A stretch of DNA of 64,000 nucleotides, from the NCBI GenBank assembly GCA_020348985.1, contig CP070761.1, positions 2,433,087-2,497,086 on the forward strand, written 5' to 3'. Below are positions 25,812-40,888 of the stretch, piece after piece. Position numbers and translations under genes: made by a program. The stretch is from Candidatus Thorarchaeota archaeon (GTDB taxonomy: Archaea > Asgardarchaeota > Thorarchaeia > Thorarchaeales > Thorarchaeaceae). The notes below the pieces were generated by a model, which was given only the letters and a program-made list of their open reading frames with translations, was not told the DNA's origin and did no database searches. Positions within the stretch are counted from its first letter, which is position 1, and every line of letters begins with the position of its first letter.

Positions 25812-28148
25812 TTGGTGATAATTACTATGCAAGGGTTATTTGATACATTCCTGAATCAGATGACACTCTTCGAGCAAGCAATGATTCTGCTTGTCATTGG
25901 AGCAGCGATTCTAAGCCTTATCTACGCTTGGTGGCTGCGAAGGGGTGTACTTGTTCAGGACAAAGGGACAGAACAGATGCAAACTGTCTGGGAAGGAATT
26001 CGCGAGGGTGCTCTTTCCTATCTGAGCAGACAGTTGAGAAGCGTCTTGCCGATCCTCTTCTTTCTGATAATATTCCTTTATGCAAGCGTAGCAGTAGCAC
26101 CCCCTGAGCCACAGGCCGTCATTCTCTTCGGAGCTGATGCATTAATCATCATTGGGATTGGCCGTGCTATTGCCTTCATCTTGGGAGCGTCCTTCTCCCT
26201 TATGGTTGGCCAGCTTGGCATGCGAATAGCAGTCGAGTCGAGCGTTAGAGTCGCACAGGCGACCAGGGAAGGCGAAGACAGGTACAACCGTGCCTTGACG
26301 ATTGCATACAGGGGTGGAACCTACACAGGGATGCTTACCGATGGTCTAGGGCTGATTGGTGGTACGACCATCTTCATCATCTTCGGAACCGCGGCCCCTG
26401 ATGCCCTGCTTGGGTTCGGATTGGGAGGAACACTTCTTGCACTCTTCATGAGAGTGGGGGGAGGAATCTACACCAAGGCGGCCGATGTCGGTGCTGATCT
26501 TGTAGGTAAGATTGAGCAGGGTCTCCCTGAAGACGATCCAAGAAACGCCGCAGTAGTCGCAGACCTCGTTGGTGACAATGTCGGCGATTGCGCTGGAATG
26601 GCCGCAGATATCTTCGAGTCTTATGAAGTTACAATAGTATCTGCACTGATTATTGGTATCGCCATATATGCAGACCCCACACATTGGATTGTGGGCATGC
26701 CTGCATTGGCTGTCATAGTATTTCCACTGGCTGTAAGAGCAGTTGGTGTAATTTCATCAATGATTGGAACTGTGATGGTTCCCATTTGGCCTCGGCTTCT
26801 TAGAAAACGAGAAGTGTACGCCGAGAAGGCTATGTTTCTGTCTTACGAAGCATCAAGTCTATTCACAGGCATTGTTACTATGTTCCTGGCGTACTTCTAT
26901 GTAAACGATATTCGTCTAGCAATCCTTGTGATTGTTGGCGTATTGCTCGCCGTCTCGTTCAATCCGATTACCAGTTACTTTACTTCGCTTCAGAAGCCGC
27001 CTGTCCAAGAGATTGTGAAATCCGCTGATACTGGTCATGCAACTTTCATTCTGTCTGGCCTGGTTGCCGGCTACGAGTCGACCGTTGCGGCTCTCATTGC
27101 AATTGTGACAACCTTCGGAGTGGCCTATGTGCTGTTTGCAGTAGACGGTCTGATTTGGGTACTCTACGGAATTGCACTGATTGGTATAGGCATGCTTTCG
27201 CACACAGGTAACAATGTTGCAATGGACTCCTATGGTCCGATAAGCGACAATGCTGCTGGCATTGGAGAGCTTTCTCCCGGCGACTTTGAAGAGGAGTCGC
27301 AGAAGGTAATGGCTGAATTAGATGCAGTTGGAAACACAACCAAAGCCATCACCAAGGGTGTGGCGATTGCCTCAGCAGTGATTGCTGCAGTGAGCCTCTT
27401 TGACAGCTTTGTGATTGTAGCTGGCCTTGAAGAGATTGGCATCAGACTTGACAATCCACTTGTGTTTGCTGGAGTTCTACTGGGAGCTGCGCTGCCGTGG
27501 CTGTTCTCAGCATTGAACATCAAGGCTGTAACAAGAGCTGCAGGCGAGATGGTAAGAGAAGTTCGAAGGCAATTCAAGATACCTGGAATCCTTGAAGGAA
27601 CGGTAAAACCAGATTATGACCGAGCAGTAGGAATTTCAACCACCGCTGCTCAGAAGGAACTCATTGCGCTGGTCGCCATGACGGTTTCAATCCCGTTAAT
27701 GGTTGCGATTCTCTTCGGTGGTGACAACTTGGCACCGCTGGGTGGATTCCTTGGAGGTATCATCATCTCTGGTCAACTTCTGGCAGTCTTTATGTCCAAT
27801 AGTGGCGGAGCATGGGATAACGCCAAGAAAGCTATCGAGGAAGAAGAATGCGATCCCGAGAGAAACATGGGGAAGGGTTCCGAGCGCCACAAGTGCGGAG
27901 TTGTTGGAGATACCATCGGTGACCCACTAAAGGACACAGCAGGTCCAGCATTGAATCCTATGATCAAAGTTGTCAACTTGGTCAGTCTACTCCTGGCCCC
28001 GGTTCTGGTGACTTACCACTTTGGTTCAGGAATTGCGGTCGCTGGAATACCAATGGACCTCATTCTCGCGGGAATTGTCGGTCTACTTGCTTTGCTGACA
28101 TTCTGGGCTATCAGGAAGAGTCGCAAGCCAGCGGACTTTGGAGAATAG
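25812..28148 (+). CDS. hppA: Membrane-bound pyrophosphatase, K+-independent H+-PPase type
   Basis: GGGIYTKAADVGADLVGK, EDDPRN, DNVGD, GNTTKA (Lys marks K+-independent type), GDTIGDPLKD. Confidence 0.93.
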   Translation: MVIITMQGLFDTFLNQMTLFEQAMILLVIGAAILSLIYAWWLRRGVLVQDKGTEQMQTVWEGIREGALSYLSRQLRSVLPILFFLIIFLYASVAVAPPEPQAVILFGADALIIIGIGRAIAFILGASFSLMVGQLGMRIAVESSVRVAQATREGEDRYNRALTIAYRGGTYTGMLTDGLGLIGGTTIFIIFGTAAPDALLGFGLGGTLLALFMRVGGGIYTKAADVGADLVGKIEQGLPEDDPRNAAVVADLVGDNVGDCAGMAADIFESYEVTIVSALIIGIAIYADPTHWIVGMPALAVIVFPLAVRAVGVISSMIGTVMVPIWPRLLRKREVYAEKAMFLSYEASSLFTGIVTMFLAYFYVNDIRLAILVIVGVLLAVSFNPITSYFTSLQKPPVQEIVKSADTGHATFILSGLVAGYESTVAALIAIVTTFGVAYVLFAVDGLIWVLYGIALIGIGMLSHTGNNVAMDSYGPISDNAAGIGELSPGDFEEESQKVMAELDAVGNTTKAITKGVAIASAVIAAVSLFDSFVIVAGLEEIGIRLDNPLVFAGVLLGAALPWLFSALNIKAVTRAAGEMVREVRRQFKIPGILEGTVKPDYDRAVGISTTAAQKELIALVAMTVSIPLMVAILFGGDNLAPLGGFLGGIIISGQLLAVFMSNSGGAWDNAKKAIEEEECDPERNMGKGSERHKCGVVGDTIGDPLKDTAGPALNPMIKVVNLVSLLLAPVLVTYHFGSGIAVAGIPMDLILAGIVGLLALLTFWAIRKSRKPADFGE

Positions 28149-28175
28149 GATAGGACAGAGCGTATTGCTTTGAAT

Positions 28176-28210
28176 GGTGGCACGAAGTGTCACCATCCTT
28201 CCACTTTTTC
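28176..28210 (+). terminator. Hairpin plus pyrimidine tract after hppA
   Basis: GGTGGCAC-GAA-GTGTCACC followed by CCTTCCACTTTTTC. Confidence 0.45.
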
Positions 28211-28279
28211 ATCATAACAAGAACCATATGAACCAGATTAGCCTAGGCACTGAACAATAAGGTGACGCGGGACCTAGGC

Positions 28280-28630
28280 ATGAGCGAGCGAATGAGAGTT
28301 GGAGAACTGATTTTCGAATGCATCCAACGCGGCAACAAATCGGGCGGGTTGACAGGAGAGGCAGTCATCGCTATTGCTAAAATCATCCGAGATGAGATTC
28401 GTTACTACGATTCACCTGAGAGTAGACAAGAACGGAAATGGGACCACACCGTTTCACAAAGCCTCACTGATGTTTCTCAAGCCCTAGAAGAGATTTGGTC
28501 CAAGCAACCTCGTGGTCTTAGACTCCACCACATCACTCCTATCCGGGCTCATAGCTCTAAGGCAACTGCCCATGAGATACTCCACAAAACAAGAGCTGAG
28601 CTAGTGATTGAGCTCGATACGATCATCTAG
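28280..28630 (+). CDS. Hypothetical protein
   Basis: ORF of ~116 aa with plausible helical composition; no motif recognised. Confidence 0.55.
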   Translation: MSERMRVGELIFECIQRGNKSGGLTGEAVIAIAKIIRDEIRYYDSPESRQERKWDHTVSQSLTDVSQALEEIWSKQPRGLRLHHITPIRAHSSKATAHEILHKTRAELVIELDTII

Positions 28631-28656
28631 GCATGCATTTCGTCCTGTTGAAGTCA

Positions 28657-28791
28657 GGCTCAATAGAATTGATTGGGGGTTGAGCCCGAGCTTGGGAACA
28701 AAAGAGAAAGTAGGTAAATTCGCGTGGTTAGGAGGGGAGATATGTAGTAGGCTCCCAAGCCGGACTCCTACGACGAATTAAATCAATTCCT
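28657..28791 (-). ncRNA. Candidate structured (pseudoknotted) non-coding RNA
   Basis: Five complementary segment pairs of 6-9 bp within 135 nt, three extendable by G-U only on the minus strand. Confidence 0.4.
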
Positions 28792-28896
28792 AAATAAGGC
28801 TATTAGAAGGGGCAAAAGTCTGCGCGGTCTTTCTCTGAACATTGAGGAGCCAAAAAGAGAGTCAACTGATTTGACGGGGGGTGCCTGCATGGCACA

Positions 28897-29256
28897 CTAG
28901 TATCCCCACTCTTGCCCCAATCTTTGGCGATACCAACGCTGGCCACGTTTGGTAAGGGAGTACTTCCCGCTAATCTCTTGAAGTAGTCCCATCTGCACCA
29001 TACTCTGAAGGACCCCGAAGAGCTTGTCATCAGAAGCACCTGTTGTTTCGCGAAGCTTTGCGAAGCTCATCTTCCCATCTCGTCTTAACAGCTGCGCTAT
29101 GTCGAATTTTCCAACCGCTCTAGTTTCCTTGCGTGACACAATCTCGCCGCAGTTTGTGCAGATCAAGTCGCCTTTGAGATCGTCCCTGGCAACCTCTTGG
29201 CTACCGCATATGGGGCATGTGGCCTTTGAGAATCTCAATGAACGACGGTGTGACAT
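28897..29256 (-). CDS. TFIIB-type zinc ribbon fused to winged helix
   Basis: CPICGS..V..D...GDLICTNCGEIV; then wHTH ending GLLQEISGKYSLTKRG. Confidence 0.75.
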   Translation of the reverse strand: MSHRRSLRFSKATCPICGSQEVARDDLKGDLICTNCGEIVSRKETRAVGKFDIAQLLRRDGKMSFAKLRETTGASDDKLFGVLQSMVQMGLLQEISGKYSLTKRGQRWYRQRLGQEWGY

Positions 29257-29322
29257 CTTTCTTGCCTAATGAGAAGCCAAGCGAGTGTTGATAAAACTAG
29301 CGAAGCGGTGTCTGTTGGGTCT

Positions 29323-29826
29323 TCACTTGCTGGAGCCCAGCTCAGAAAAGAAGGTGTCATAGTCTATCTCAAATGGCACTCTCATTCCTGGTCGAACTTT
29401 CTTTGAGCCTTTGTCAACCTCAACATAACCTAGAGATGCGAGTTCCCTTAGGTCCGCACGCACGCCCTGTAAGCTCTTCTTTCTTAGTTCCCTGACTTGG
29501 TCAATTCGGACCCAGCCCCCCTCTTGATATGCAAGAGTGATTACAACGAGAAGCGTTGCAGCCAGGCGATCTGGCAGAGCTGAACCGTGGACTTCGGCGT
29601 CGGCTTCAACCACTGCGTCGAGATAGTATACATGATGAACTGGATTGTGACAAATCGCAAGGCCAACCGGTGTCAGTCTTCTGTGAAGTCCTGCGAGCTT
29701 TCGATAAAGCGGATGTCGTCCTGAGACTTCAGGAAGTCCCAATGCTTCTAGCATATCATCCACTGAAGCACCAATGGGGTCTCCTGTCCGGGTGAGGAGC
29801 CTGATGAGGATCCCAAACTCATTCAT
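29323..29826 (-). CDS. KITE (tandem winged-helix; Nse1/Nse3/ScpB-like) SMC accessory subunit
   Basis: WH-A ending L..RL..VGLAI..VYYL; WH-B ending LRELASLGYVE..RPGMRVPFEI; overlaps kleisin stop. Confidence 0.7.
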   Translation of the reverse strand: MNEFGILIRLLTRTGDPIGASVDDMLEALGLPEVSGRHPLYRKLAGLHRRLTPVGLAICHNPVHHVYYLDAVVEADAEVHGSALPDRLAATLLVVITLAYQEGGWVRIDQVRELRKKSLQGVRADLRELASLGYVEVDKGSKKVRPGMRVPFEIDYDTFFSELGSSK

Positions 29827-30487
29827 TGTGCAGCGCCTCCTTTCCCAGCCTCACGATGTCCTTCGCCTGAGGGTCATATATCGCCGTTCCATCAGAGACC
29901 ATGAGGATCACATAGAGGAATCTTCGCAGCCTCAGCTCTTTGCTGTCAGTTGTGAGAATCTTGACGAGAGGAATCTTCTTATCAACCGGAATCGATGTAA
30001 TGAAGTCCTCCATTTCTTTTGAGAAGGCAACATCTTCAGATCTCAGTATTATGTCACGTGCACTGAATGAAATTGAAGGTATCTGGTCCTCTGGACCCTC
30101 TCTGGATATAGCGTCAATGAAGCTCAGCATTCTTGCTAACGAGTCGTCCAGGGATTTCTGACTGAGCCCCTTCAGGACTAGTGGTTGACGATAGCGTATC
30201 ATCTTTGATAGTTTTCGGCTACTCGTCTGACTAAGTTTTTCTACATATCGCTCAGGTGCCCCAATGACTCTAACAAGCTCCTGTACACGATTCACTTTAG
30301 CAGACAGAATTCCGTTGAGCAACTCGTCTACTTCGATTTTGGTGTGGACTTGCCCTGCTGCTATCTTCAGCTCTCGAAATGCAGGTGTAAGTTTGACATC
30401 AAGGGGGTTGAGCTCCCCTTGCTCGATCCTTCTTGCAATGTTGAATATTCTCCTCGAGAGATCCGTTATCGGTTTCACTGCACACAT
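29819..30487 (-). CDS. Kleisin (ScpA/Nse4-like)
   Basis: N-term IEQGELNPLDVKL..ILSAKV; C-term wHTH RRFLYVILMVSDG; GGAGGA RBS before ATG at 30487. Confidence 0.72.
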   Translation of the reverse strand: MCAVKPITDLSRRIFNIARRIEQGELNPLDVKLTPAFRELKIAAGQVHTKIEVDELLNGILSAKVNRVQELVRVIGAPERYVEKLSQTSSRKLSKMIRYRQPLVLKGLSQKSLDDSLARMLSFIDAISREGPEDQIPSISFSARDIILRSEDVAFSKEMEDFITSIPVDKKIPLVKILTTDSKELRLRRFLYVILMVSDGTAIYDPQAKDIVRLGKEALHNE

Positions 30488-30494
30488 TCCTCCA

Positions 30495-33400
30495 TCATCC
30501 TGAGAACCTCGGATTCTCAATTATCAACGAGGGTTCACTCCCTCTAGGCGCTGCAACTCCAATGATTCTGTCTGCATTGCGCAGGAGGTATGTGCTCTTT
30601 GCTGGTGTAAAAAGAACGAACTGACTACTCAAAGACGAGTTGTGAAGCAACTTACCAACGAGTTCGGTGTTCGTGGCATCGAGAAAAATGTCGATTTCAT
30701 CCAGTGCATAGATTGGATTTGAGTTGAGCTTCTGAAGAGCAAGAATCAAGGCTATGGCGATAAGCGACCTTTCTCCTCCAGAACCAGCGCTCAATTCAAC
30801 AAAGGCCTCGGCCTTAATGCGGGATTTGAACTCAACACCATATTGCCCATCCTTGAGAAGCAGCTCGAATCGAACGTCACCAGGAAACTGCACTCCGTTT
30901 AGGATATTGTTGACCTGGTTTTCAACCCCAGAGATTGCATCGCTCATTTCGTTGTGATATTGTTCTCTAATGCTTTTCACAGCAAGTTCTGCTTCTTCAA
31001 GCTCCAATCCTAGCTCGGCAGACTTGACAATGAGTGAAGCAAAGCGATTTGAGAGCTGTGACTCTGTGAGTGCAATAGCTTCTGACACATCACGATAGTC
31101 CTCCAGAACGTGTCTGATACCCACAAGTTCTTCGTAGACGGACTTTGGGTCTCTGACGGATTCGGGTTGTTCATCAAGATTCAGCTCTGATTCAATACGT
31201 TGGGTCTCCTGCTCCAGACTGGTAAGCTGTTTCTTTGTCTGTGCCACAAGTCGATGACTATCCTTGATCCTCAGATTAATCTCAACCAGGTTCTCTCGCT
31301 GCAAGCGAATAAGATCCCTTCGACTCTCGAGGTCGCTTCTCAATCTCTCCAATTCATCTTCCAGTTCTACTTGAGACTCTGCAAATCCTTCAATCGTTGT
31401 CATTGCTTCAGCCGCAATCGACTCAGATTCCTTAACCTGGCTTCGTAGATCAGTTGCGCGTTCAGAGAGCATGGCGATGCTCTCCTTGAGGCGGGCAGAT
31501 TCTCCTTTCCTGTTTTCCTCCTCAGCTTCCGATGCCGCTAAAGCCGCCTCGACTGACGAAAGATCTGACTGTAGGCTCCTCTGCTTTGTCCGTACGGCGT
31601 TTTGTGCGGCAATAAGCCTACTCCGTTCAGGAGGCTGAGCATCATCTAGTTTCTTCAGCTTTCTCTCAGCTATCCCGAGGTCTTTTTGGAGCTCCTTTAG
31701 CTCTTGATCCCCTGAAGCAATCCTCTCCTGCAATTCCACGATGCTTTCAGACAGTCTCTTCCTTCGATGCCAAGTCTCACTCCAAGCCCTAAACTGACTA
31801 AGCATGTCCAGAATCTCTGATCTCTCATCTACCAGGGCCTCAAGTCTAAGCGCTGCGTTGGTAATCTGCTTGTTCACGACTTTTGCTTCTGCTTCTGCGC
31901 TGGCAAGCTGCGCTTGCAACGGAGCTGACGAGATAATGCCGGTGGGCTCTCTTAGTGGATGACTGACAATACTTTTGTTCTGATGACTGTGAATGTGCCG
32001 GTCCAAAGAGACTGCATTTAGACCCGTCTTGGTTGAGACCCTTGTGCACGCAGCGGCAGTCGATGTTAGAACATACTCACCGAATGCCAGCCGAAGAATC
32101 CTTCGTGTCTCTGGTTCAAGTTCAAGCGTCTCCCATAGCCATCCTTCGACACCACGCCCCTTCGGAAGTTCAGGCAACACTCTGCCCGGATTATCATCAG
32201 ACACCAGAATGATTGGCGAAGGGGCTGAGACCTGATCTCGCAGCTTCTGCATAAGGCTGAAGTCAGCACTTTCTGTAACAATGAAGGCAAACACCATGTT
32301 GTCAGAGAACAGAATCTCCAAGACTTCACCAAACTTCTCTCCGGAGGGAATCAATTCTATCAGAGGACCAGCAACGGACGCAAGCTCATGATCTTCGATG
32401 GATGATTTTAGTTCGTGGACTGACGCGGGAATTCTTTCCTTCATTTCAGAGAGCTTTAGCTTTGTCTTTTCCATCCGTTTTCTGATTTCTGACAACTTGC
32501 TCCCGGCTCTAATCCTCTCTTCATTCACAGACTCAATCTCACGTTCGATTCCTGCGAGCCGCTGATTTAGCTCCCTTTCGTCAGTCTTCTCTAGTGCTTG
32601 CCAAGTGCTTTCCCATCTTCTTTCCATGGAATGGAGCTCGGCCTGCTCAACTTGGAGGCGTTCCATGAGACTTCTGACCAGGAAGTCCCGTGATCTGATG
32701 TCTGCCTGAAGGCCCTTGTAGGTTCCATATGCCTCAGCTCTCTTCTTGTTCCACTTGGAGAACCTCTCAAGAGCGGCTTCGATTTCCGCTCGTTCAGTCT
32801 CTAGCTCGGCAAAGGACTGACGCAGTGTCTTCAGTCGTTCGAGCCTTTCTTCCTTCTGTACTGAAGCCCGCTTCAAATCGCTACCAATCTTGTCCAGTTG
32901 TTTCCTATCCTTCTTCAACAAGTCCTCGGTCTTACTCAACTCCCCTATCAGTTTCTTATCTTCTTCTCTGAGATGATCGATTCTTCGTTTCTCTGCTTCA
33001 ATCTTGGCTCCGATTCGTCCGATTTCAACTTGAATACTATCGATTCTCTTCTGAATGGCTGAAGCGTCTTCTTCGTCAGATTCTAGTTCATCTTGAAGGG
33101 ACTTGGACTGATCAAGTATTTCAAGGAGTCCAGATTCTCTTTCCTCCACTTCCTTCCTAATAGACTCAACTTGGCCATTCAGTTCTTGCCGCCTTGCCCA
33201 CTTTGCTTCTACCTCAAGTTCGCTTTCTCTCTTCTGAAGCTCGCGTTTCTTTTCGAGTCTTTGCAGGTCCCGTTTGATGAATCTCAGCTCTGTCTCAACG
33301 GCTTGAGATTCGATTAGCGCATTATCAAGCTCCTGTCGACTTCTTGCCACTCTAGTCTCTTCCAAGGAGATACGATCTCTCAAGGCATAGAGACCTGTTC

Positions 33401-33863
33401 CCTCTTCTATCAACGTGCGGACGGCTACCGGGTTCATTCCACGTATGGAGTTAATCTTCTCTTGAGGCATGAATACGAGATCGTTGTCAACATCAAACCC
33501 AAAGGAAGAAACCAGTTCGCGAAGTTCCGCCGCTTTGACACGGCGTCCATCGATGTAAGGGCGTGGGATACTTCCTTTGCCTATCCTTCTGGTCAGCTTT
33601 CTACTCTGGCCATTAACCTTGACACGCACCTCAACCTCCGCAGCCGAAGCTCCATGTCTTATGAAATCACTCCACTTTGGGTAACGATCCTCTCGCTGGT
33701 TTGAGCCAAGCGCGAACTTGAGAGCCTGAAAGATTGACGTTTTGCCTGAACCATTGGGTCCAACGATCACGGTCAAGCCAGAGTCCAGCTCAACAAATCC
33801 TTCATAGAACGATAGGAAATTCTTCAGTCGCACCGATTCGATGTATACTTGGTTGTCACCCAC
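30495..33863 (-). CDS. SMC ATPase, Smc5/6 (ClsN-related) type
   Basis: LKNFLSF, GPNGSGKT, Q-loop FMPQE, coiled coils, hinge GPLIELI, SGGERS, LDEIDIFLD, QFVLFTP. Confidence 0.88.
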   Translation of the reverse strand: MGDNQVYIESVRLKNFLSFYEGFVELDSGLTVIVGPNGSGKTSIFQALKFALGSNQREDRYPKWSDFIRHGASAAEVEVRVKVNGQSRKLTRRIGKGSIPRPYIDGRRVKAAELRELVSSFGFDVDNDLVFMPQEKINSIRGMNPVAVRTLIEEGTGLYALRDRISLEETRVARSRQELDNALIESQAVETELRFIKRDLQRLEKKRELQKRESELEVEAKWARRQELNGQVESIRKEVEERESGLLEILDQSKSLQDELESDEEDASAIQKRIDSIQVEIGRIGAKIEAEKRRIDHLREEDKKLIGELSKTEDLLKKDRKQLDKIGSDLKRASVQKEERLERLKTLRQSFAELETERAEIEAALERFSKWNKKRAEAYGTYKGLQADIRSRDFLVRSLMERLQVEQAELHSMERRWESTWQALEKTDERELNQRLAGIEREIESVNEERIRAGSKLSEIRKRMEKTKLKLSEMKERIPASVHELKSSIEDHELASVAGPLIELIPSGEKFGEVLEILFSDNMVFAFIVTESADFSLMQKLRDQVSAPSPIILVSDDNPGRVLPELPKGRGVEGWLWETLELEPETRRILRLAFGEYVLTSTAAACTRVSTKTGLNAVSLDRHIHSHQNKSIVSHPLREPTGIISSAPLQAQLASAEAEAKVVNKQITNAALRLEALVDERSEILDMLSQFRAWSETWHRRKRLSESIVELQERIASGDQELKELQKDLGIAERKLKKLDDAQPPERSRLIAAQNAVRTKQRSLQSDLSSVEAALAASEAEEENRKGESARLKESIAMLSERATDLRSQVKESESIAAEAMTTIEGFAESQVELEDELERLRSDLESRRDLIRLQRENLVEINLRIKDSHRLVAQTKKQLTSLEQETQRIESELNLDEQPESVRDPKSVYEELVGIRHVLEDYRDVSEAIALTESQLSNRFASLIVKSAELGLELEEAELAVKSIREQYHNEMSDAISGVENQVNNILNGVQFPGDVRFELLLKDGQYGVEFKSRIKAEAFVELSAGSGGERSLIAIALILALQKLNSNPIYALDEIDIFLDATNTELVGKLLHNSSLSSQFVLFTPAKSTYLLRNADRIIGVAAPRGSEPSLIIENPRFSG

Positions 33864-33878
33864 GCTTCCCGTTCTCCG

Positions 33879-34952
33879 CTATTGCCTTCCCATGAGTCTT
33901 CGCAGTTTGTCAGCACTTCTCTTTGCCTTCAACAGACGCATCAAGCGCTCTTCCGCACTTCCCATTATCAGAAAGGGGAACTTGCCGAGGAAATCCAGGT
34001 CTTTCTTTGACAGAGGCAAACTGGAATTGAGAGTCTCAATGACACGCTGAGTATCGGAATAGCTCTCCCCTACCGCCTCCAAGTAGAGTTGATCAAGGAA
34101 CTCCTCCGGATACTCAAGCTCAGTTGTCTCAACAGAGGGGAATCGCCGCCCCGATGTCCTTGCGATTAGAGAATCGACATACTCTCCTCGGCCCACCGGG
34201 TGCACTCCGCTCTCACGAATGAGCCTCTCTAGGCTCTCTCCAGAGAATGAGTCGGCCTCGATCTCGTCATTCATCAATATGCTCACAGCAAGGTGTTTGA
34301 CATCGATAAAGCTCCAGCCATCAGTCAACTCTGCTAGCTGCGCAACATCAACATCCTCGCGGTTTCTCAACACGTCCTCCAATGCCCTGACTCGGTCCTC
34401 AAGAGATGCGCTATCACTGACTAAAAGACGGTCGAATGTTCCCATCAGACTTCTTTCCAATGCATCTGGTTTACTCGTTGAAGCTATTACTAGAACTTCA
34501 TCCTTGTCCCAAGTGGTCCTTTCTAGCTCGTCAATAAGAAGTGCTGTTGTAGGGGTGCCGCTTGGACATAATGATTCCAGACTCTGTATGTACAATAGAC
34601 AGGGTGAGCTTCTCTTCGCAGTCTCAAAACCCGTCTGGATTGCTGCGTTTACGTACTTTGGTTCTGAGAGAATGTTGCTAATCCTAAAACGCAAGATTCT
34701 GAGGGGCACCTCAATCCCAATATAGTCGATGAAAGCTTGGAAGTCGGTTCCTGGTGGTCCAACTAGCAGTACCCTGCCTCCAAACTCAACTCCTCTTTCG
34801 TCGAGTGTTGACCTGACCCCTTCGTGGCGTTTGATGATAGAGTGAAACCATTTCGCTTTCTCACGAATAGAGTATTGACTAAGTCGACTTGCTGATATCC
34901 GCTCGGGGTCTATCAGCTCCAGTGCCTCAGCGAGTGTGTCCTCTGTTCCCAC
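33879..34952 (-). CDS. Catalytically inactive classical-clade AAA+ protein
   Basis: Walker A GPPGTDFQ, Walker B LLYIQS, SRH STSKPDALERSLMGTFDR, lid LAELTDGWS; GTG at 34952 taken as start. Confidence 0.75.
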   Translation of the reverse strand: MGTEDTLAEALELIDPERISASRLSQYSIREKAKWFHSIIKRHEGVRSTLDERGVEFGGRVLLVGPPGTDFQAFIDYIGIEVPLRILRFRISNILSEPKYVNAAIQTGFETAKRSSPCLLYIQSLESLCPSGTPTTALLIDELERTTWDKDEVLVIASTSKPDALERSLMGTFDRLLVSDSASLEDRVRALEDVLRNREDVDVAQLAELTDGWSFIDVKHLAVSILMNDEIEADSFSGESLERLIRESGVHPVGRGEYVDSLIARTSGRRFPSVETTELEYPEEFLDQLYLEAVGESYSDTQRVIETLNSSLPLSKKDLDFLGKFPFLIMGSAEERLMRLLKAKRSADKLRRLMGRQ

Positions 34953-35083
34953 GGCTGACCCGCCTAGAACGCGGCAATCGCATGAATCCATATTACGTCT
35001 TCGGAGGGACCTATATTCCGCGCCCTTCTCTGCCCTCTAGCAAACCATTAAGGCGCTTTCTCTTCCCCCATCACTGGGTCCGA

Positions 35084-36802
35084 ATGAGTAGTCCAAGCGA
35101 ACACTTACGTGAACAGGTTTGGCAGGTCATTACCACGATTGAGAGTAGAGGTCTCTATGTCCACTCGGCAGACCTTCTCGTCAAGTATCAAGACACTGGG
35201 ACGAAGGAAGGTCGGGTCCGGACTCGTAGAATTCCATTGATTGCAGGCATGTGTGTCCTGAATGCTCTCGTCCCCCGTTCTGCAATACTACTCGTTGGAG
35301 GTCATGGTGGCGGGAAGACTACGCTCATCAAGCTCCTAGGAAGAATGATGACAGGCAGACCCCTTCAGGAAATTGATGAGGGAATCCTTAGAGGACATCC
35401 TCAGCTTACTGAAGAGAAGATGGTTGCAACGCTAAAGCCAGGTCCGTTGATGAAAGACGGGGTCGAAGTTGTTGTCTGGCGGCGGTTTGTAACTGATTTC
35501 TGGAAGCTGATAGATGAGGTCAATCGCCTTACACCACACGCTCAAAACATCTTGCTATCTCTGCTTGCCGAAGGTGAAATGAAATACTATGATGAGACCT
35601 ACAGATGTGAGGAATACTGCCTGTATGCTACTCTGAATCCTGCAGATGCTGGAACGTTCGAACTTTCACCCCCGTTTCTCGATCGTTTTGGCGCAGCAGT
35701 ACCAATCACAATGCCCACAGTAACGGATCTTGAGCTCATTCTATCCTCGAGGGATGAGCGTCTGTTTGGATACGATGAGCTTTGGCAAGTCCCTGCGCTC
35801 ATGAAGGAGGAAGAGCTGTTAACAATATGGAATCTAGCTGACAAGATTCCGGTTTCAGAAGAAGCATCCGGATTCATGAGGTCTCTAGTCAGAGAGTTTG
35901 GCGCATGCATTAGGACAGACAAGAGCCAATCAAGAGACCTCACCGTTGAGACTGGCCTCTGCGATGGCTGTCATTTCAATACTGCGAAGAGTGTATGTAA
36001 CAAAGTAGTTATCCCTCTTAGTGTTCGTGCAGTCAAGGATCTAAACAGGTATGCCAAAGCTGCAGCTTGGCTAGTAGGTGCTGCAGAGGTTGGGGTTGAG
36101 ATAGTCAAGTCACTGGCTCCTCTAGTCTTCTGGCACAGAACGAGTTTTGCTTCAGATGAGCTTGACAGGTCACCCTTCTACGGAGACCGCTACATCTACA
36201 CAAAACATCTTGTTGAACTAGCATCTAGTCGATTCGCACAGAGAGACGCTGCTCTGAGAATCATTGAGCAGCTGGAACAGGGAGCAGCACCTGTCAAAGC
36301 ACTCGATGAGTTGAAGGAAATGGGGAAGAGTGATCTCATTGTTAGGCTCGACTACGTCCGTTTCGCCAAGGAGCTAAGCAAATCCCGATATGTTAAGATG
36401 ACACAGGGGATAGAGAAGAGCATCCACAAGAAGGACGCAGAGAAGCTAGCCAGAATCCATGATGAGCTGATGCATGATCCTGAGTTTCCAAATCGCAGCA
36501 TGCTTCTAAACAAGGTTTCTGAGGCTCTTCATAGGCTAACTCTATCACAATTCTCTCTCACGTACGAGCAGTGGCAAGAGGTCTGGACTTCAATAGGCCT
36601 ACGCTTTCCAAAGATGACCAGTGTTCTTAAAGAAACCCTGAACGCCCCAAAGCGAAAAGTGATCCGGACTGACGGACTCACACTTGTCGTGTATGTTACT
36701 GGTGACACTCCTACCTCGTCTGTCTTTCTCGAGATTTCCGGTGGTCCCGGGGCAATGGAAATTCGAGAAGACATAGAGACTCATATTGCTGGAGGTGAGT
36801 AG
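35084..36802 (+). CDS. MoxR-family AAA+ ATPase with Cys-rich insertion
   Basis: GGHGGGKT, LIDEVNR, ATLNPAD.GTFELSPPFLDRF, SVR; C..CDGCH..C insert; ATG at 35084. Confidence 0.85.
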   Translation: MSSPSEHLREQVWQVITTIESRGLYVHSADLLVKYQDTGTKEGRVRTRRIPLIAGMCVLNALVPRSAILLVGGHGGGKTTLIKLLGRMMTGRPLQEIDEGILRGHPQLTEEKMVATLKPGPLMKDGVEVVVWRRFVTDFWKLIDEVNRLTPHAQNILLSLLAEGEMKYYDETYRCEEYCLYATLNPADAGTFELSPPFLDRFGAAVPITMPTVTDLELILSSRDERLFGYDELWQVPALMKEEELLTIWNLADKIPVSEEASGFMRSLVREFGACIRTDKSQSRDLTVETGLCDGCHFNTAKSVCNKVVIPLSVRAVKDLNRYAKAAAWLVGAAEVGVEIVKSLAPLVFWHRTSFASDELDRSPFYGDRYIYTKHLVELASSRFAQRDAALRIIEQLEQGAAPVKALDELKEMGKSDLIVRLDYVRFAKELSKSRYVKMTQGIEKSIHKKDAEKLARIHDELMHDPEFPNRSMLLNKVSEALHRLTLSQFSLTYEQWQEVWTSIGLRFPKMTSVLKETLNAPKRKVIRTDGLTLVVYVTGDTPTSSVFLEISGGPGAMEIREDIETHIAGGE

Positions 36803-38527
36803 ATGATTCGAGAGCAAGACGCAGTTCAATCAGGAATTCAATATCAGAGTGCGGCAGAACGCGCCTTCGCTCAAGCGCTTGCGGATTTCTATCATCCCCC
36901 GCTCCCAAGTCCGATCATTCAGTATGATCCTGAAGCTTCAAGCTTCTTCTTCATAGATGCCAAAAGCTGGACTGTCCACCTGAATACAGCAGGGGTTCCT
37001 GTGCACCTTGATGCAAATGAAGCTGAGCCATATTTGCGATCGGTCTCGCAACATGAGATTCAGCATTACTTGGTCTGCCCTTTTGACGGCATAACGAACG
37101 GTATGATGTTCGCTGCGGCACGACGTCACGTGAATGATGCCACTGCAATGTTCACCTGCAACCTGTTTGCAGACCTTGTGGTTGATTCTGGACTCTTGAA
37201 GAGGTATCCTCGGCTTACTCACGAACGGATTCAGCTTTCAATACACGACTCTGCAATGAGAGTCAAAGAACACAGCCCTCTATGGCTCCTGATTGCAGGA
37301 TGTTACCGTGCGATGTGGGGATTCCCGTTACCTCCAACGGCAGGCATGGACCGCTCCACATACTCAACGGCCGAAGCGATTGTAGAGATGGTCAAGAAAT
37401 CTCTTGGCCGAGAAAGTAGATGGCCCAAGACTTGCAGAGAGATAGCCCGGATAATTGCTGAATGGTTGCCTCCTGAGGAGGAACAGCTCCCCGGTTGTCC
37501 GGCATTGTCTTCAGATGGGGGTCTAAATGCAGACTCTGTAACCATCTTCGTTCCACTTGACGTTGATGGAATCATGGGCAGCCCAATAGAAGATCGGAAT
37601 GGCGATCGAGCGAGGAGATGTCTTGACCCCGACTCGATTGCTGATATGGATTCTGAGATGGAGCGAATCGCGGTAGAAGTTGAGCAGAGAGGCGGCGGAC
37701 TCGATGATCTCGATGCCGTGTACACGTTGACCGGAATTGGAGACGAAAGAAGTGAGTGGATTCGGTTCTGGTATCGAGCCAAAGCACGAGGAATGATCCG
37801 ATATGAAATATCAGAAAGATTCCCATCTGGATCAGTGCCGCTAACACCCCAACTCTGGAGGCTAGGAGACCCAGTAGAAGAGCTGGATATTGTCCAATCA
37901 CTCCAGACATTCCCAGTCTTGGTTCCTAATCTCTCAACACGAAGATGGGCAAAGGCTGACTCTTTCGGCCAATTGGAATCGAAGTCAATTCCTGACATGT
38001 TGATAGTCATTGACTCAAGTGGCTCCATGACTTACTCTATGAGTCGTAGCACAATAGCCGGAGAGTTTCACACAGCTTTGCTTGCAGCTTTTGCGTCAAT
38101 GGACTTTGCCCTAAAGAGAGGTAGGCGAGTTGCGGTTATCAACTTCTCAGATGGTGTCAGAGTATGTGATTGGACTCGTCAAAGAAGAGATGCTGAGATG
38201 AGACTCCTTTCCTATCAGGGCGGAGGAACTATGGCACCAATTAAACACATTGAACAAATGTGTTCTCGTGCAGATGGTCATAACATGATCATTCTGATGA
38301 CTGACGCTGAGATAGCCAACTGGGACAAGTTCGTGAAAGCTGTGGATACCTTGACCAAGAAGGGCATCAAGCTGTTCCTTTTTCACATTGGACGCAGCAG
38401 CGCGAAGAGCCTGGACAAAATCCAGATTGCTCTCAAAGAGGCTGGTGCAAATGTCTACCCAATCGCGTCTGTTGACGACCTTCCAGGCCTCGTAGTCAGG
38501 GAGATTAACTCCTTCTACCGCTATTAG
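36803..38527 (+). CDS. HExxH metallopeptidase-like domain plus vWA domain protein
   Basis: HEIQH..NLFADLVVD; MIDAS DSSGS, GGT, TDAE; abuts MoxR stop. Confidence 0.85.
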   Translation: MIREQDAVQSGIQYQSAAERAFAQALADFYHPPLPSPIIQYDPEASSFFFIDAKSWTVHLNTAGVPVHLDANEAEPYLRSVSQHEIQHYLVCPFDGITNGMMFAAARRHVNDATAMFTCNLFADLVVDSGLLKRYPRLTHERIQLSIHDSAMRVKEHSPLWLLIAGCYRAMWGFPLPPTAGMDRSTYSTAEAIVEMVKKSLGRESRWPKTCREIARIIAEWLPPEEEQLPGCPALSSDGGLNADSVTIFVPLDVDGIMGSPIEDRNGDRARRCLDPDSIADMDSEMERIAVEVEQRGGGLDDLDAVYTLTGIGDERSEWIRFWYRAKARGMIRYEISERFPSGSVPLTPQLWRLGDPVEELDIVQSLQTFPVLVPNLSTRRWAKADSFGQLESKSIPDMLIVIDSSGSMTYSMSRSTIAGEFHTALLAAFASMDFALKRGRRVAVINFSDGVRVCDWTRQRRDAEMRLLSYQGGGTMAPIKHIEQMCSRADGHNMIILMTDAEIANWDKFVKAVDTLTKKGIKLFLFHIGRSSAKSLDKIQIALKEAGANVYPIASVDDLPGLVVREINSFYRY

Positions 38528-38612
38528 AGCTAGGCCCAAAGTTTTATCTCGCACGTAAAAACGCAACGCCTGTCACCTGGAGCAAACTAGGTCTCCTAGA
38601 GGCAGTGATAGT

Positions 38613-39455
38613 ATGTATGAAATCCTCTTCAAGAAGATTCTGAACGAGAACACGAAGTTCATGGTTGTTGACGCCCCAGAGATTGCCAGGGTCTGCAAAC
38701 CTGGTCAGTTCGTAGTGATACGAGTCAATGAAACTGGAGAGCGTATTCCACTTACAATTGCAGACTTTGACCGTGAGAAAGGAACAATAACAATTGTCTT
38801 TCAAGAGGTTGGAAAATCAACCAAGCTTCTCGGAAGTCTTGAGAAGGGAGACAAGATTCTAAATTTCGTAGGCCCACTCGGCAAACCTACACCCACTGAA
38901 AAGGTCTACGGTACCGTTGTAGCTGTTGGGGGTGGGTGTGGAACTGCAATTGTATACCCTGTTGCTCGAGCTTTCAAGGAGGCTGGCAATCATCTCATCA
39001 GCATAAATGGAGCTCGCAGTATGGACCTTCTCATATATAGAAGAGAAATGGAAGAAATCAGCGACGAAACTTATGAGACCACGGATGACGGATCATGTGG
39101 AGTTCATGGTTTTGTGACAACAGTGTTGGGAGACCTCATCTCAAAAGGCAGAAAGATTGACCTTGTTTTTGCTGTTGGTCCTGTTCCTATGATGAAGTTC
39201 GTTTCAAAGATCACTGCAGCACAAGAGATTCCCACACTGGTTAGCTTGAATAGTATCATGGTTGATGGGACGGGAATGTGTGGAGCCTGTCGGGTGAACG
39301 TTGGAGGGCAAATGAAGTTCTCATGTGTAGATGGACCAGAATTCGATGGTCATGAAGTTGATTATGATGAGCTGATGGGGCGGCTGAACGCATACAAGGA
39401 ACAGGAAGAGATCTCTGATAGGCTTTGGAATGAGTCACAGGGAGGTGCCGCATAG
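38613..39455 (+). CDS. nfnA: NfnA/SudB small subunit of ferredoxin-dependent transhydrogenase
   Basis: PGQFV..GERIPLTIAD, GPLG, MVDGTGMCGACRV, CVDGPEFD. Confidence 0.92.
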   Translation: MYEILFKKILNENTKFMVVDAPEIARVCKPGQFVVIRVNETGERIPLTIADFDREKGTITIVFQEVGKSTKLLGSLEKGDKILNFVGPLGKPTPTEKVYGTVVAVGGGCGTAIVYPVARAFKEAGNHLISINGARSMDLLIYRREMEEISDETYETTDDGSCGVHGFVTTVLGDLISKGRKIDLVFAVGPVPMMKFVSKITAAQEIPTLVSLNSIMVDGTGMCGACRVNVGGQMKFSCVDGPEFDGHEVDYDELMGRLNAYKEQEEISDRLWNESQGGAA

Positions 39456-40888
39456 TGTCTGATAGAAGCAACAAGGCTCCAGCAAAAAAGCGTGAGAGGA
39501 AACCTCCCACCAAGAAGGTGCCCATGCCCGAGCAAGACCCGCTTGAACGCAGAAAGAACTTTGACGAAGTGGCTCTTGGATATGATGCTGAGCAAGCAGT
39601 TGCAGAAGCCGAGAAATGTCTACAATGCAGGAATCCCAAATGCATAGACGGTTGCCCGGTGGAGGTGAACATCAAAGAGTTCATTGAACTGGTCCGCGTA
39701 AGGCGATTCATGGAAGCTGCTCTGAAGATAAAAGAAACCAACAGTCTTCCAGCTATCTGCGGTCGCGTTTGCCCTCAAGAAACCCAATGTGAGCAGTCCT
39801 GCATCTACGGCATTCGTAATGAACCCATAGCTATCGGTCGTCTTGAAAGATTTGTAGCTGACTATGCGCGCGCCCATGATGAACCAATGCCAGAAATACT
39901 GGATAGAATAGGAAGGAAGATTGCAGTCATTGGATCGGGACCAGCTGGATTAACCTGCGCCGGCGACCTCGCTAGACTGGGTTATGACGTAACTATCTTT
40001 GAGGCCTTCCACAAACCTGGGGGCGTTCTTGTCTATGGTATCCCCGAGTTCAGATTACCAAAAGACATTGTGATGGCCGAAGTGGAGTATCTTGAGAGGT
40101 TAGGTGTTGAGATCAAGTACGATTATGTCATCGGGAAAATTCGTACTGTACTCGAATTGATTGATGAGGACGGCTATGATGCAGTCTTCTTGGGAACCGG
40201 AGCAGGTGCCCCCAACTTCATGAGAATATCAGGTATGAACCTGGTGACCGTATTCTCAGCAAACGAGTTCCTAACACGGGTCAATCTGATGAAGGCATAT
40301 GAGTTTCCCGAGTACGATACGCCTGTCAGGATTGGCAACAGTGTAGCAGTCATTGGTGGAGGAAATGTAGCCATGGATGCGGCTCGTACATCCGTGAGAC
40401 TTGGTGCAGATGAAGTTACTATCATCTATAGACGTTCTATGGAAGAGCTCCCTGCACGACTTGAAGAAGTTCATCATGCAGAGGAGGAAGGAGTACACTT
40501 CCGTCTTCTGACTAGTCCCACGGAAGTCCTGGGCAATGAAAGTGGTGAAGTCATTGGCATGCAATGCATTGAGATGGAGCTTGGTGAACCTGACGAATCT
40601 GGGAGGAGACGGCCGATTCCAATTCCGGATTCTGAGTCTACCATCAATGTTGACACAGTAATTGTGGCAATTGGCAACTCTCCAAATCCAATAATCCCAC
40701 AAACCACGCCTGGACTTGATGTCACCTATTGGGGGACCATCATTGTAAACGAAGAGACAGGGATGACGTCACTTCCCGGTGTCTTTGCAGGTGGTGATAT
40801 TGTGACAGGTGCCGCAACGGTAATCAGTGCGATGGGGGCGGGAAAGCGAGCCGCCCGGGGGATCCATAAGCTCCTGAACGGCGAGTGA
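39455..40888 (+). CDS. nfnB: NfnB/SudA (GltD-like) large subunit
   Basis: CLQC..CIDGCPV, CGRVCPQETQCE, GSGPAG, GGGNVAMD, GGDIVTGAATVI. Confidence 0.92.
   Translation: MSDRSNKAPAKKRERKPPTKKVPMPEQDPLERRKNFDEVALGYDAEQAVAEAEKCLQCRNPKCIDGCPVEVNIKEFIELVRVRRFMEAALKIKETNSLPAICGRVCPQETQCEQSCIYGIRNEPIAIGRLERFVADYARAHDEPMPEILDRIGRKIAVIGSGPAGLTCAGDLARLGYDVTIFEAFHKPGGVLVYGIPEFRLPKDIVMAEVEYLERLGVEIKYDYVIGKIRTVLELIDEDGYDAVFLGTGAGAPNFMRISGMNLVTVFSANEFLTRVNLMKAYEFPEYDTPVRIGNSVAVIGGGNVAMDAARTSVRLGADEVTIIYRRSMEELPARLEEVHHAEEEGVHFRLLTSPTEVLGNESGEVIGMQCIEMELGEPDESGRRRPIPIPDSESTINVDTVIVAIGNSPNPIIPQTTPGLDVTYWGTIIVNEETGMTSLPGVFAGGDIVTGAATVISAMGAGKRAARGIHKLLNGE

Follow-up and report, generated by a model that had tools for sequence, protein, structure and literature searches.

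A second SMC operon of Asgard archaea led by a pseudo-AAA+ protein and accompanied by a MoxR/HExxH-vWA gene pair

Genes of the locus and their products

The 64,000-nt stretch of a Candidatus Thorarchaeota genome analyzed here (contig CP070761.1 of assembly GCA_020348985.1; hereafter the window) carries at 28897-38527 a system of seven genes in two divergent units. One unit is led by a catalytically dead AAA+ protein, termed X, and continues with a non-canonical structural maintenance of chromosomes (SMC) ATPase, SMC-2, a putative kleisin, a KITE-like subunit and a Zn-ribbon protein, and the other encodes a MoxR-class ATPase and an adaptor that combines an HExxH motif with a vWA domain. X is permanently paired with SMC-2 in Asgard archaea, and the MoxR-vWA pair co-occurs with SMC-2 and frequently adjoins it. 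The coding sequences were taken from a six-frame list of open reading frames (ORFs) with translations, in which all seven ORFs of the system are present at the expected places; coordinates are positions of the whole window.

28897-29256, minus strand: Zn-ribbon-winged-helix-turn-helix (wHTH) protein, 119 aa, last gene of the minus-strand unit
29323-29826, minus strand: KITE-like subunit, 167 aa
29819-30487, minus strand: putative Nse4-like kleisin of about 222 aa, starting with the ATG at 30487 (open frame up to 30520)
30495-33863, minus strand: SMC-2, 1122 aa, non-canonical SMC ATPase
33879-34991, minus strand: pseudo-AAA+ protein X, 370 aa (357 aa from an alternative GTG at 34952)
34992-35083, unstranded: divergent spacer common to both units, 92 bp (131 bp if X begins at GTG 34952)
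35084-36802, plus strand: MoxR, 572 aa, MoxR-class AAA+ ATPase
36803-38527, plus strand: HExxH-vWA adaptor, 574 aa

A preliminary description of the locus, made from the letters alone, had given these seven genes in this order and on these strands, and ORFs and domain calls confirm it. The spacings it listed are likewise correct, with 15 nt between X and SMC-2, 7 nt between SMC-2 and the kleisin, an overlap (of 8 nt) between the kleisin and KITE genes, 66 nt between the KITE and Zn-ribbon genes and, on the plus strand, abutting MoxR and HExxH-vWA genes (0-nt gap). Its divergent spacer of about 130 bp is obtained (131 bp) if X starts at GTG 34952, but measures 92 bp with the longer start. The sole TATA-like element noticed in the spacer, which was read directly, is TATATT at 35012-35017.

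SMC-2 matches Pfam SMC_N over residues 7-1105 (1.6e-38), and intact Walker A (GPNGSGKT), signature (SGGE) and Walker B (ending DE) motifs can be read from its translation. It has the split ABC head, long coiled coils and hinge of an SMC ATPase, the hinge match being weak (0.0017, 19.2 bits vs. a cut-off of 22.5). The protein is divergent, since its score against TIGR02169 is far under the cut-off (277 vs. 729 bits), and it represents a second paralogue, because a canonical SMC-ScpA-ScpB operon with an SMC of 1196-1214 aa and ScpA- and ScpB-sized genes lies elsewhere in the source genome (C1:1325067-1329900); BLASTP aligns just 145 residues of the two SMCs, at 32% identity (E 1.2e-10). A search of the PDB gave mixed results, the N-terminal half matching Smc6 best (2.4e-14), with Smc5 chains also found, and the C-terminal head matching a prokaryotic SMC best (5.9e-23). 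The SMC-kleisin-KITE core has already been published as an archaeal SMC5/6-related operon of TACK and Asgard archaea (Yoshinaga & Inagaki 2021, PMC8665677; van Hooff et al. 2025, bioRxiv 10.1101/2024.01.07.573240), and we tentatively place SMC-2 among the SMC5/6-related SMCs of archaea on the basis of these operons and of the kleisin and KITE leads below. The system had at first been described as new in its entirety, which thus holds for its accessory genes only.

The identities of the kleisin and the KITE-like protein rest on weaker evidence than the SMC, AAA, MoxR and vWA calls. Feature comparison in the Atlas scored the kleisin at 0.94 against an archaeal cluster with Nse4_C on 18% of its members, at 0.86 against a eukaryotic Nse4 cluster and at 0.78-0.80 against ScpA clusters. 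No Pfam match was found for it by single-sequence or profile searches, and its best PDB profile match, located at the C-terminus, is a weak one to the C-terminal winged helix of ScpA (4i99_C, E 0.45); the gene follows SMC in all loci. The KITE-like gene in turn comes after the kleisin in every locus. The Atlas model of its product has TM scores of 0.46-0.49 to ScpB, DUF4194/MksE and Nse1 clusters, and weak DUF4194 matches were present in 3 of 18 orthologues; the window protein itself had no Pfam match and gave generic wHTH matches only in the PDB profile search.

The last gene of the unit matches the TFIIB-type Pfam family Zn_Ribbon_TF (1.2e-7, 31.6 bits vs. a cut-off of 29), with weak wHTH matches. 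It follows KITE in 15 relatives at 65-83% identity and was seen only in the Thorarchaeia-type families f1 and f2 (families are labelled f1 to f24 throughout): the Zn-ribbon profile had no match in the Loki-type SMC-2 loci L085, L087, L089 and L092, and the ORF after KITE in f7 and f8 loci is something other than a Zn-ribbon. In one genome (G014, L045:12623-13542) the KITE and Zn-ribbon genes form an inverted block relative to SMC-kleisin, and in another (G007, L039:4926-7351) about 2.4 kb lies between KITE and kleisin, so that in these two loci KITE and the Zn-ribbon protein travel as a pair.

Protein X belongs by fold to the classical AAA+ clade (Cdc48/FtsH/Vps4). It matches Pfam AAA at 3e-10, a profile of 23 orthologues finds Cdc48/p97 in the PDB at 9e-43, and its AlphaFold2 (AF2) model, with a mean predicted local distance difference test (pLDDT) of 87, was matched to p97 by VIA with Z 18.8 and a root-mean-square deviation (rmsd) of 3.8 over 227 residues. 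The fold and lid of the clade are present but its catalytic residues are not: the Walker A position reads GPPGTDF (expected GPPGTGKT) and the Walker B position LLYIQS (expected hhhhDE), and 23 of 23 orthologues lack both the lysine of Walker A and the acidic pair of Walker B, the Walker B positions varying among them. As the lysine occurs in 0/23, X is a pseudo-ATPase and not an enzyme of the classical clade, and the dead AAA+ protein that had been proposed to head the operon is thereby confirmed. X ends in a conserved helical domain of about 80 aa, which is kept, together with AAA_lid_3 (1.9e-7), in the shorter versions of f7 and f8 (271-315 aa). Judged from the orthologue sequences, the catalytic death of X is ancient and universal and its C-terminal domain is conserved. 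Atlas features and shapes gave chance-level rows only for this domain (e.g. Vps4_C at 0.81), and the VIA rows span only residues 16-274.

A profile search of 5.8 billion proteins found the X family in Asgard archaea only, with Thor-, Prometh-/Loki-, Hod- and Hermod-labelled members; the next matches were genuine Cdc48 and FtsH enzymes. Source names from this search and Atlas cluster labels agree in assigning the window to Thorarchaeota. One f7 genome (G093, L090:10954-11792) has X in two ORFs (116 and 172 aa) and an SMC-2 gene with one in-frame TAG, for which decay or sequencing error are possible explanations.

The MoxR protein is an AAA+ ATPase of its class, with matches to Pfam AAA_5 (2.8e-12, 47 bits vs. 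a cut-off of 22), AAA_3 (29 bits, cut-off 27) and AAA_lid_2, intact Walker A (GGHGGGKT) and Walker B (IDEV) motifs in the translation and an adjoining vWA gene. Its PDB matches are AAA modules of Midasin and the MoxR protein 2r44. No other gene of the set is as well conserved (66-75% identity across genera of the family). About 215 aa at the C-terminus are specific to the Asgard form; relatives from TACK archaea (about 406 aa) lack them and align to residues 43-357 only.

The adaptor consists of a helical N-domain with the HExxH motif and a C-terminal vWA domain (Pfam VWA 6.8e-9) with a complete metal ion-dependent adhesion site (MIDAS), of which D404-S-S406-x-S408, T476 and D501 are invariant in 23 orthologues. 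Its AF2 model has a pLDDT of 78; the vWA domain was matched with Z 18.6 and an rmsd of 2.4 over 163 residues, with NorD and Rea1-MIDAS among the structural matches, so that both the fold and the DxSxS, Thr and Asp metal site of the vWA/MIDAS class are present. H84, E85, H88, D95, N120 and D124 of the N-domain are also invariant in the 23 orthologues, D95, N120 and D124 being candidates for a third zinc ligand. No Pfam family and no peptidase was matched by this domain in ten diverse orthologues. The AF2 model has three short strands before the HExxH helix and more helices after it, an order that would be compatible with a zincin fold. Whole-adaptor shapes in bacteria match with TM 0.64-0.70, and one of these clusters, with Peptidase_M48 on 13% of its members, is a lead; the Foldseek and VIA lists for the whole adaptor were filled by the vWA domain and say little on the N-domain fold. 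Complex prediction for the adaptor and X (alignments A4 and A3) scored 0.00 and is evidence for neither side.

Two irregularities of the pair were observed in relatives. In one genome an extra 186-aa ORF that matches the vWA domain alone (44% identity, 2.9e-44), maybe a partial duplicate, lies 3.5 kb past the full vWA gene (G021:C1:1328361-1328879), and in the sole f2 genome about 4 kb is inserted between the MoxR and vWA genes (G025, L068:4211-8315).

Linkage and co-occurrence in Asgard archaea

The seven-gene synteny is kept in about 15 genera of the same family, at SMC identities of 35-51%, and the arrangement is therefore not due to chance. The unlinking of MoxR-vWA and the pseudo-AAA gene from the SMC operon in other Asgard genomes had been named beforehand as grounds for abandoning the idea of one system. 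For MoxR-vWA such unlinking is seen in part of the lineages (below); X was instead found directly upstream of SMC-2 in every locus examined, whether Thor-type, f7/f8, Loki-type or on a metagenome contig, including those Loki-type genomes whose MoxR-vWA pair lies elsewhere, and in two loci (L057, L058) it overlaps the SMC start by 4 nt.

In order to follow the pair and SMC-2 across the phylum, we sampled 151 Asgard genomes evenly. Of these, 49 have both the vWA gene and SMC-2, 95 have neither, and 4 have the vWA gene alone (two weak matches, one on a 2.6-kb contig). Joint absence is seen even inside family f1, in both g4 genomes and in G012. Across 41 relatives, SMC-2, MoxR and the vWA gene are either all present or all absent, with a sole exception that is explained by a contig break. 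The pair adjoins SMC-2 in 27 of the 49 genomes holding both, from families f1, f2, f7 and f8, and in 2 further genomes the adjacency is broken by a contig end. Another genome (G032), with MoxR at the end of C3 and SMC-2 near the end of C44, was considered as a hidden adjacency and dropped, as the other f9 genomes, including one in 10 contigs, have the genes on different contigs.

Three gene orders were found. The first consists of two divergent units as in the window, the second is a run on one strand with overlapping stops and starts (4-nt overlaps) in the order MoxR>vWA>X>SMC>kleisin>KITE, and the third, on a metagenome contig, reads X>SMC>vWA>109 aa>MoxR. A search for related loci in a contig collection returned one true orthologue only. 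The functional coupling of MoxR-vWA with SMC is well supported at the level of genome comparison, because of this co-occurrence and adjacency, and the proposal that the genes form one conserved unit is likewise borne out by gene comparison.

Where the pair is parted from SMC-2, in the Loki-type families f9 (which carries the Promethearchaeota label) and f24, five genomes have a canonical SMC, counted at E 1e-80 or better (G062, G140, G147, G154 and G104), and in each of them the pair lies tail-to-tail with SMC-ScpB at a distance of 0.6-1.4 kb. A sixth case, L081, has two inserted genes. The pair therefore keeps turning up by an SMC gene of one type or the other. At that threshold, canonical SMC was detected in 5 of 25 f9 genomes (G062, G140, G147, G152, G154), against 21 of 25 with SMC-2; in many f9 archaea the SMC5/6-type complex may be the only one in use, or the canonical SMC may have diverged very far.

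The system in the window is flanked by housekeeping genes, namely an NfnAB-like oxidoreductase pair and an H+-pyrophosphatase (38613-40888 and 25812-28148, respectively), which are still near in most genera of f1, inverted in some. An RNA-like element downstream of the operon (28657-28791) had no Rfam match at E up to 1 and no tRNA nearby, in Rfam and tRNA scans that covered 28200-29000 and 28000-39000. Among public sequencing runs the stretch was matched in sediment metagenome DNA runs only, with no RNA run among them.

Possible roles of the system

The explanation we favour, and consider reasonably probable, is that the locus is an Asgard-specific elaboration of the archaeal SMC5/6-related complex, with X as an added subunit and MoxR-vWA as its remodeller. 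An SMC homodimer, the Nse4-like kleisin and the KITE subunit would form a DNA-entrapping ring, of which X may be a nucleotide-independent structural or regulatory subunit, made together with SMC and acting probably through its conserved C-terminal helical domain. MoxR and the putative zincin-vWA protein would remodel SMC complexes as a dedicated pair, at the expense of ATP. On the model of CbbQ-CbbO, NorQ-NorD and Rea1/Midasin, the vWA MIDAS may grip an acidic residue of a subunit, whereupon the MoxR hexamer would pull, and the ring would be assembled, opened, loaded or released. The HExxH domain may add a proteolytic step, or bind zinc only, and the Zn-ribbon-wHTH protein could be a DNA-binding add-on specific to Thorarchaeia. 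A wider form of this proposal, which we find possible but short of probable, is that Asgard archaea use such a machine, made of a MoxR hexamer, a MIDAS/zincin adaptor and a pseudo-AAA+ protein, to load, release or dismantle both SMC5/6-type and canonical SMC rings. It would be the first such remodeller known from prokaryotes, and a functional forerunner or analogue of the eukaryotic ring regulators, i.e. loaders, Wapl-type releasers and separase.

Several observations weigh against the favoured explanation, and several of them would suit neighbouring genes that share no job, with MoxR/zincin-vWA being a general chaperone cassette with some other client, proximity to SMC reflecting inherited order or shared regulation, and X still an SMC subunit. 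The linkage of MoxR-vWA to the SMC operon that had been proposed at the outset holds for the 27 genomes with adjacent genes but not for f9 and f24, where the pair and SMC-2 co-occur but lie on different contigs in 20 of 20 genomes. SMC-2 occurs with no vWA gene detected in 3 of the 151 genomes, one of them rated 100% complete, and the genomes are kin, so that the co-occurrence counts overstate the number of independent events. Genes that lie tail-to-tail, as the pair and canonical SMC do, are not co-transcribed, and their arrangement might be synteny that was inherited. The conserved flanks in f1 indicate that synteny as such is strong there. The MoxR/zincin-vWA family also exists without SMC: 42 of 251 TACK (Thermoproteota) genomes hold a shorter cassette (L103-L116, e.g. 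L110:7125-10350) of three genes, which encode a small tail-anchored protein (about 105-125 aa, with the transmembrane helix at its C-terminus), a MoxR of 400-426 aa and an HExxH-vWA protein of 570-600 aa; none of 14 such loci has an SMC gene within 8 kb. The Thor SMC-2 query gave one match (1e-25) in the 251 TACK genomes, a result that is uninformative on SMC5/6-type genes there, as two candidates were scored per genome. Other branches of the pair adjoin a classical AAA protein, a 483-aa protein or restriction-modification genes, and the partners of the distant branches in L074, L077 and L082 had no informative Pfam match. Lastly, that the proteins touch one another at all, which subunit is the client, whether the ring is loaded or unloaded and whether anything is cleaved are points that we infer. 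We nevertheless think it unlikely that the genes are neighbours only. Their linkage has been kept through three gene orders, in one of which all genes overlap by 4 nt as one operon. The co-occurrence of the pair with SMC-2 extends over the phylum, inside f1 the two have been lost together, the pair parted from SMC-2 adjoins the other SMC, and the Asgard MoxR has a C-terminal extension of its own.

Two further explanations concern what the system might do to DNA or to the ring. It might serve in defence against foreign DNA or episomes, with the SMC5/6-like ring sensing or entrapping such DNA as in Wadjet and eukaryotic Smc5/6, the trio working like the MoxR-vWA ternary conflict systems and the zincin being a latent effector. 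The trio does match the published ternary design of MoxR, a vWA-peptidase fusion and an inactive STAND NTPase or FtsH-type AAA+ (PMC7159879), its distribution is patchy with losses inside a family, and a distant branch of the pair has a large P-loop protein and type I restriction-modification methylases for neighbours (in L082:3170-16080, where a 1180-aa P-loop protein with a weak nSTAND3 match, a 515-aa protein, the distant pair, the methylases and EMARD_N follow one another in what looks like a defence island). However, neither a nuclease nor another known effector was found at the locus, and a PADLOC scan gave generic head matches only (mad3, LmuB N-terminus), no JetA-D and no match of any kind for kleisin, KITE, MoxR or vWA, so that the dedicated effector of Wadjet- or Lamassu-type SMC defence is missing by its models. 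The chromosomal position between housekeeping genes is stable across genera, the sequences diverge in line with taxonomy, neither transfer nor a defence island being indicated, and the degree of identity of MoxR across genera is unlike that of fast-evolving conflict genes; defence thus appears distinctly unlikely to us. Least probable of all, we think, is a separase-like control, as put forward in the preliminary description, in which the HExxH domain is an active zincin that cuts the kleisin or X to open the ring, MoxR delivering the substrate. The invariance of HExxH and of several downstream acidic or polar residues, the modelled order of strands and helices around the motif and the bacterial cluster with Peptidase_M48 would all agree with it, but none of the ten N-domains matched a peptidase family by sequence, the fold searches, run with the whole protein, were filled by the vWA domain, and the same HExxH-vWA architecture is found in SMC-free cassettes, so that HExxH is no adaptation peculiar to SMC.

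The loading, opening and removal of SMC rings pose a central problem in chromosome biology, and we know of no loader, releaser or regulator of SMC complexes in archaea. According to our comparison, the archaeal relative of Smc5/6 has three unreported companions, in the lineage closest to eukaryotes. Since a MoxR motor, a MIDAS adaptor and a pseudo-ATPase are of well-understood biochemistry, the question is directly testable with recombinant proteins. If the remodeller explanation is true, it adds a new client class for MoxR/vWA chaperones and a new regulatory layer on prokaryotic SMC complexes; if the link is not real, X alone would still be a new Asgard-specific subunit of the SMC5/6-related complex.

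Comparison with known systems

Wadjet (JetABCD) and eukaryotic Smc5/6 with Nse5/6, Wapl and separase resemble the present system in that extra factors act on or through a ring, in the former cases of SMC, kleisin and KITE subunits. In contrast to Wadjet, the locus described here has no JetD-type nuclease and nothing specific was found by PADLOC. Nse5/6 and Wapl are helical-repeat proteins and separase is a cysteine protease, and any likeness of the zincin-vWA protein to them would therefore be one of function at most.

In Mg-chelatase (BchI/BchD) and cobaltochelatase (CobS/CobT), an active AAA+ protein, an inactive AAA+ module and a vWA/MIDAS domain cooperate, and weak BchI and cobaltochelatase matches were present in an NCBIfam search of the system proteins. 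In the chelatases, however, the dead AAA+ module forms a fusion with the vWA domain and is of one clade with its active partner, whereas the dead AAA+ of the Asgard system, X, is a protein on its own, belongs to the classical clade and is tied to the gene for SMC. CbbQ-CbbO, NorQ-NorD, RavA-ViaA and Rea1/Midasin share with it an AAA_5-type ATPase gene next to a MIDAS-bearing vWA adaptor. They differ in that the Asgard adaptor has an HExxH N-domain, the ATPase an extra C-terminus of about 215 aa and the proposed client is an SMC complex, which to our knowledge has not been reported as a client for the MoxR/vWA class.

A three-part design is known from bacteria, whose MoxR-vWA ternary systems combine MoxR with a vWA-peptidase and with either an inactive NTPase or an FtsH-type AAA+ protein (Kaur, Burroughs, Iyer, Aravind 2020, PMC7159879); in the Asgard case X is the third part. 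Those are bacterial conflict systems with hypervariable effectors, none of them tied to SMC, whereas the Asgard locus is stable, has housekeeping flanks, contains a dead AAA+ protein of the Cdc48/FtsH clade as its third part and has an SMC ring for a partner. Neither variable effectors nor a defence-island context were seen at the Asgard loci by synteny, PADLOC and flank domain scans.

The closest relative is the archaeal SMC5/6-related operon itself (PMC8665677; 10.1101/2024.01.07.573240), with which the system shares a second SMC paralogue, followed by its own putative kleisin with Nse4 affinity and a single KITE-like gene, in an Asgard genome. The term AAA is absent from the text of both papers, MoxR and vWA are absent from the preprint (10.1101/2024.01.07.573240), and our literature search found no paper tying MoxR or vWA to SMC or kleisin. 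The papers describe three genes, whereas in the Asgard loci studied here a pseudo-AAA+ gene always stands first, a MoxR/zincin-vWA pair is coupled to the operon and a Zn-ribbon-wHTH gene is added in Thorarchaeia. New with respect to the literature searched are the pseudo-AAA+ protein X, the co-occurrence of the pair with SMC-2 and the adjacency of the pair.

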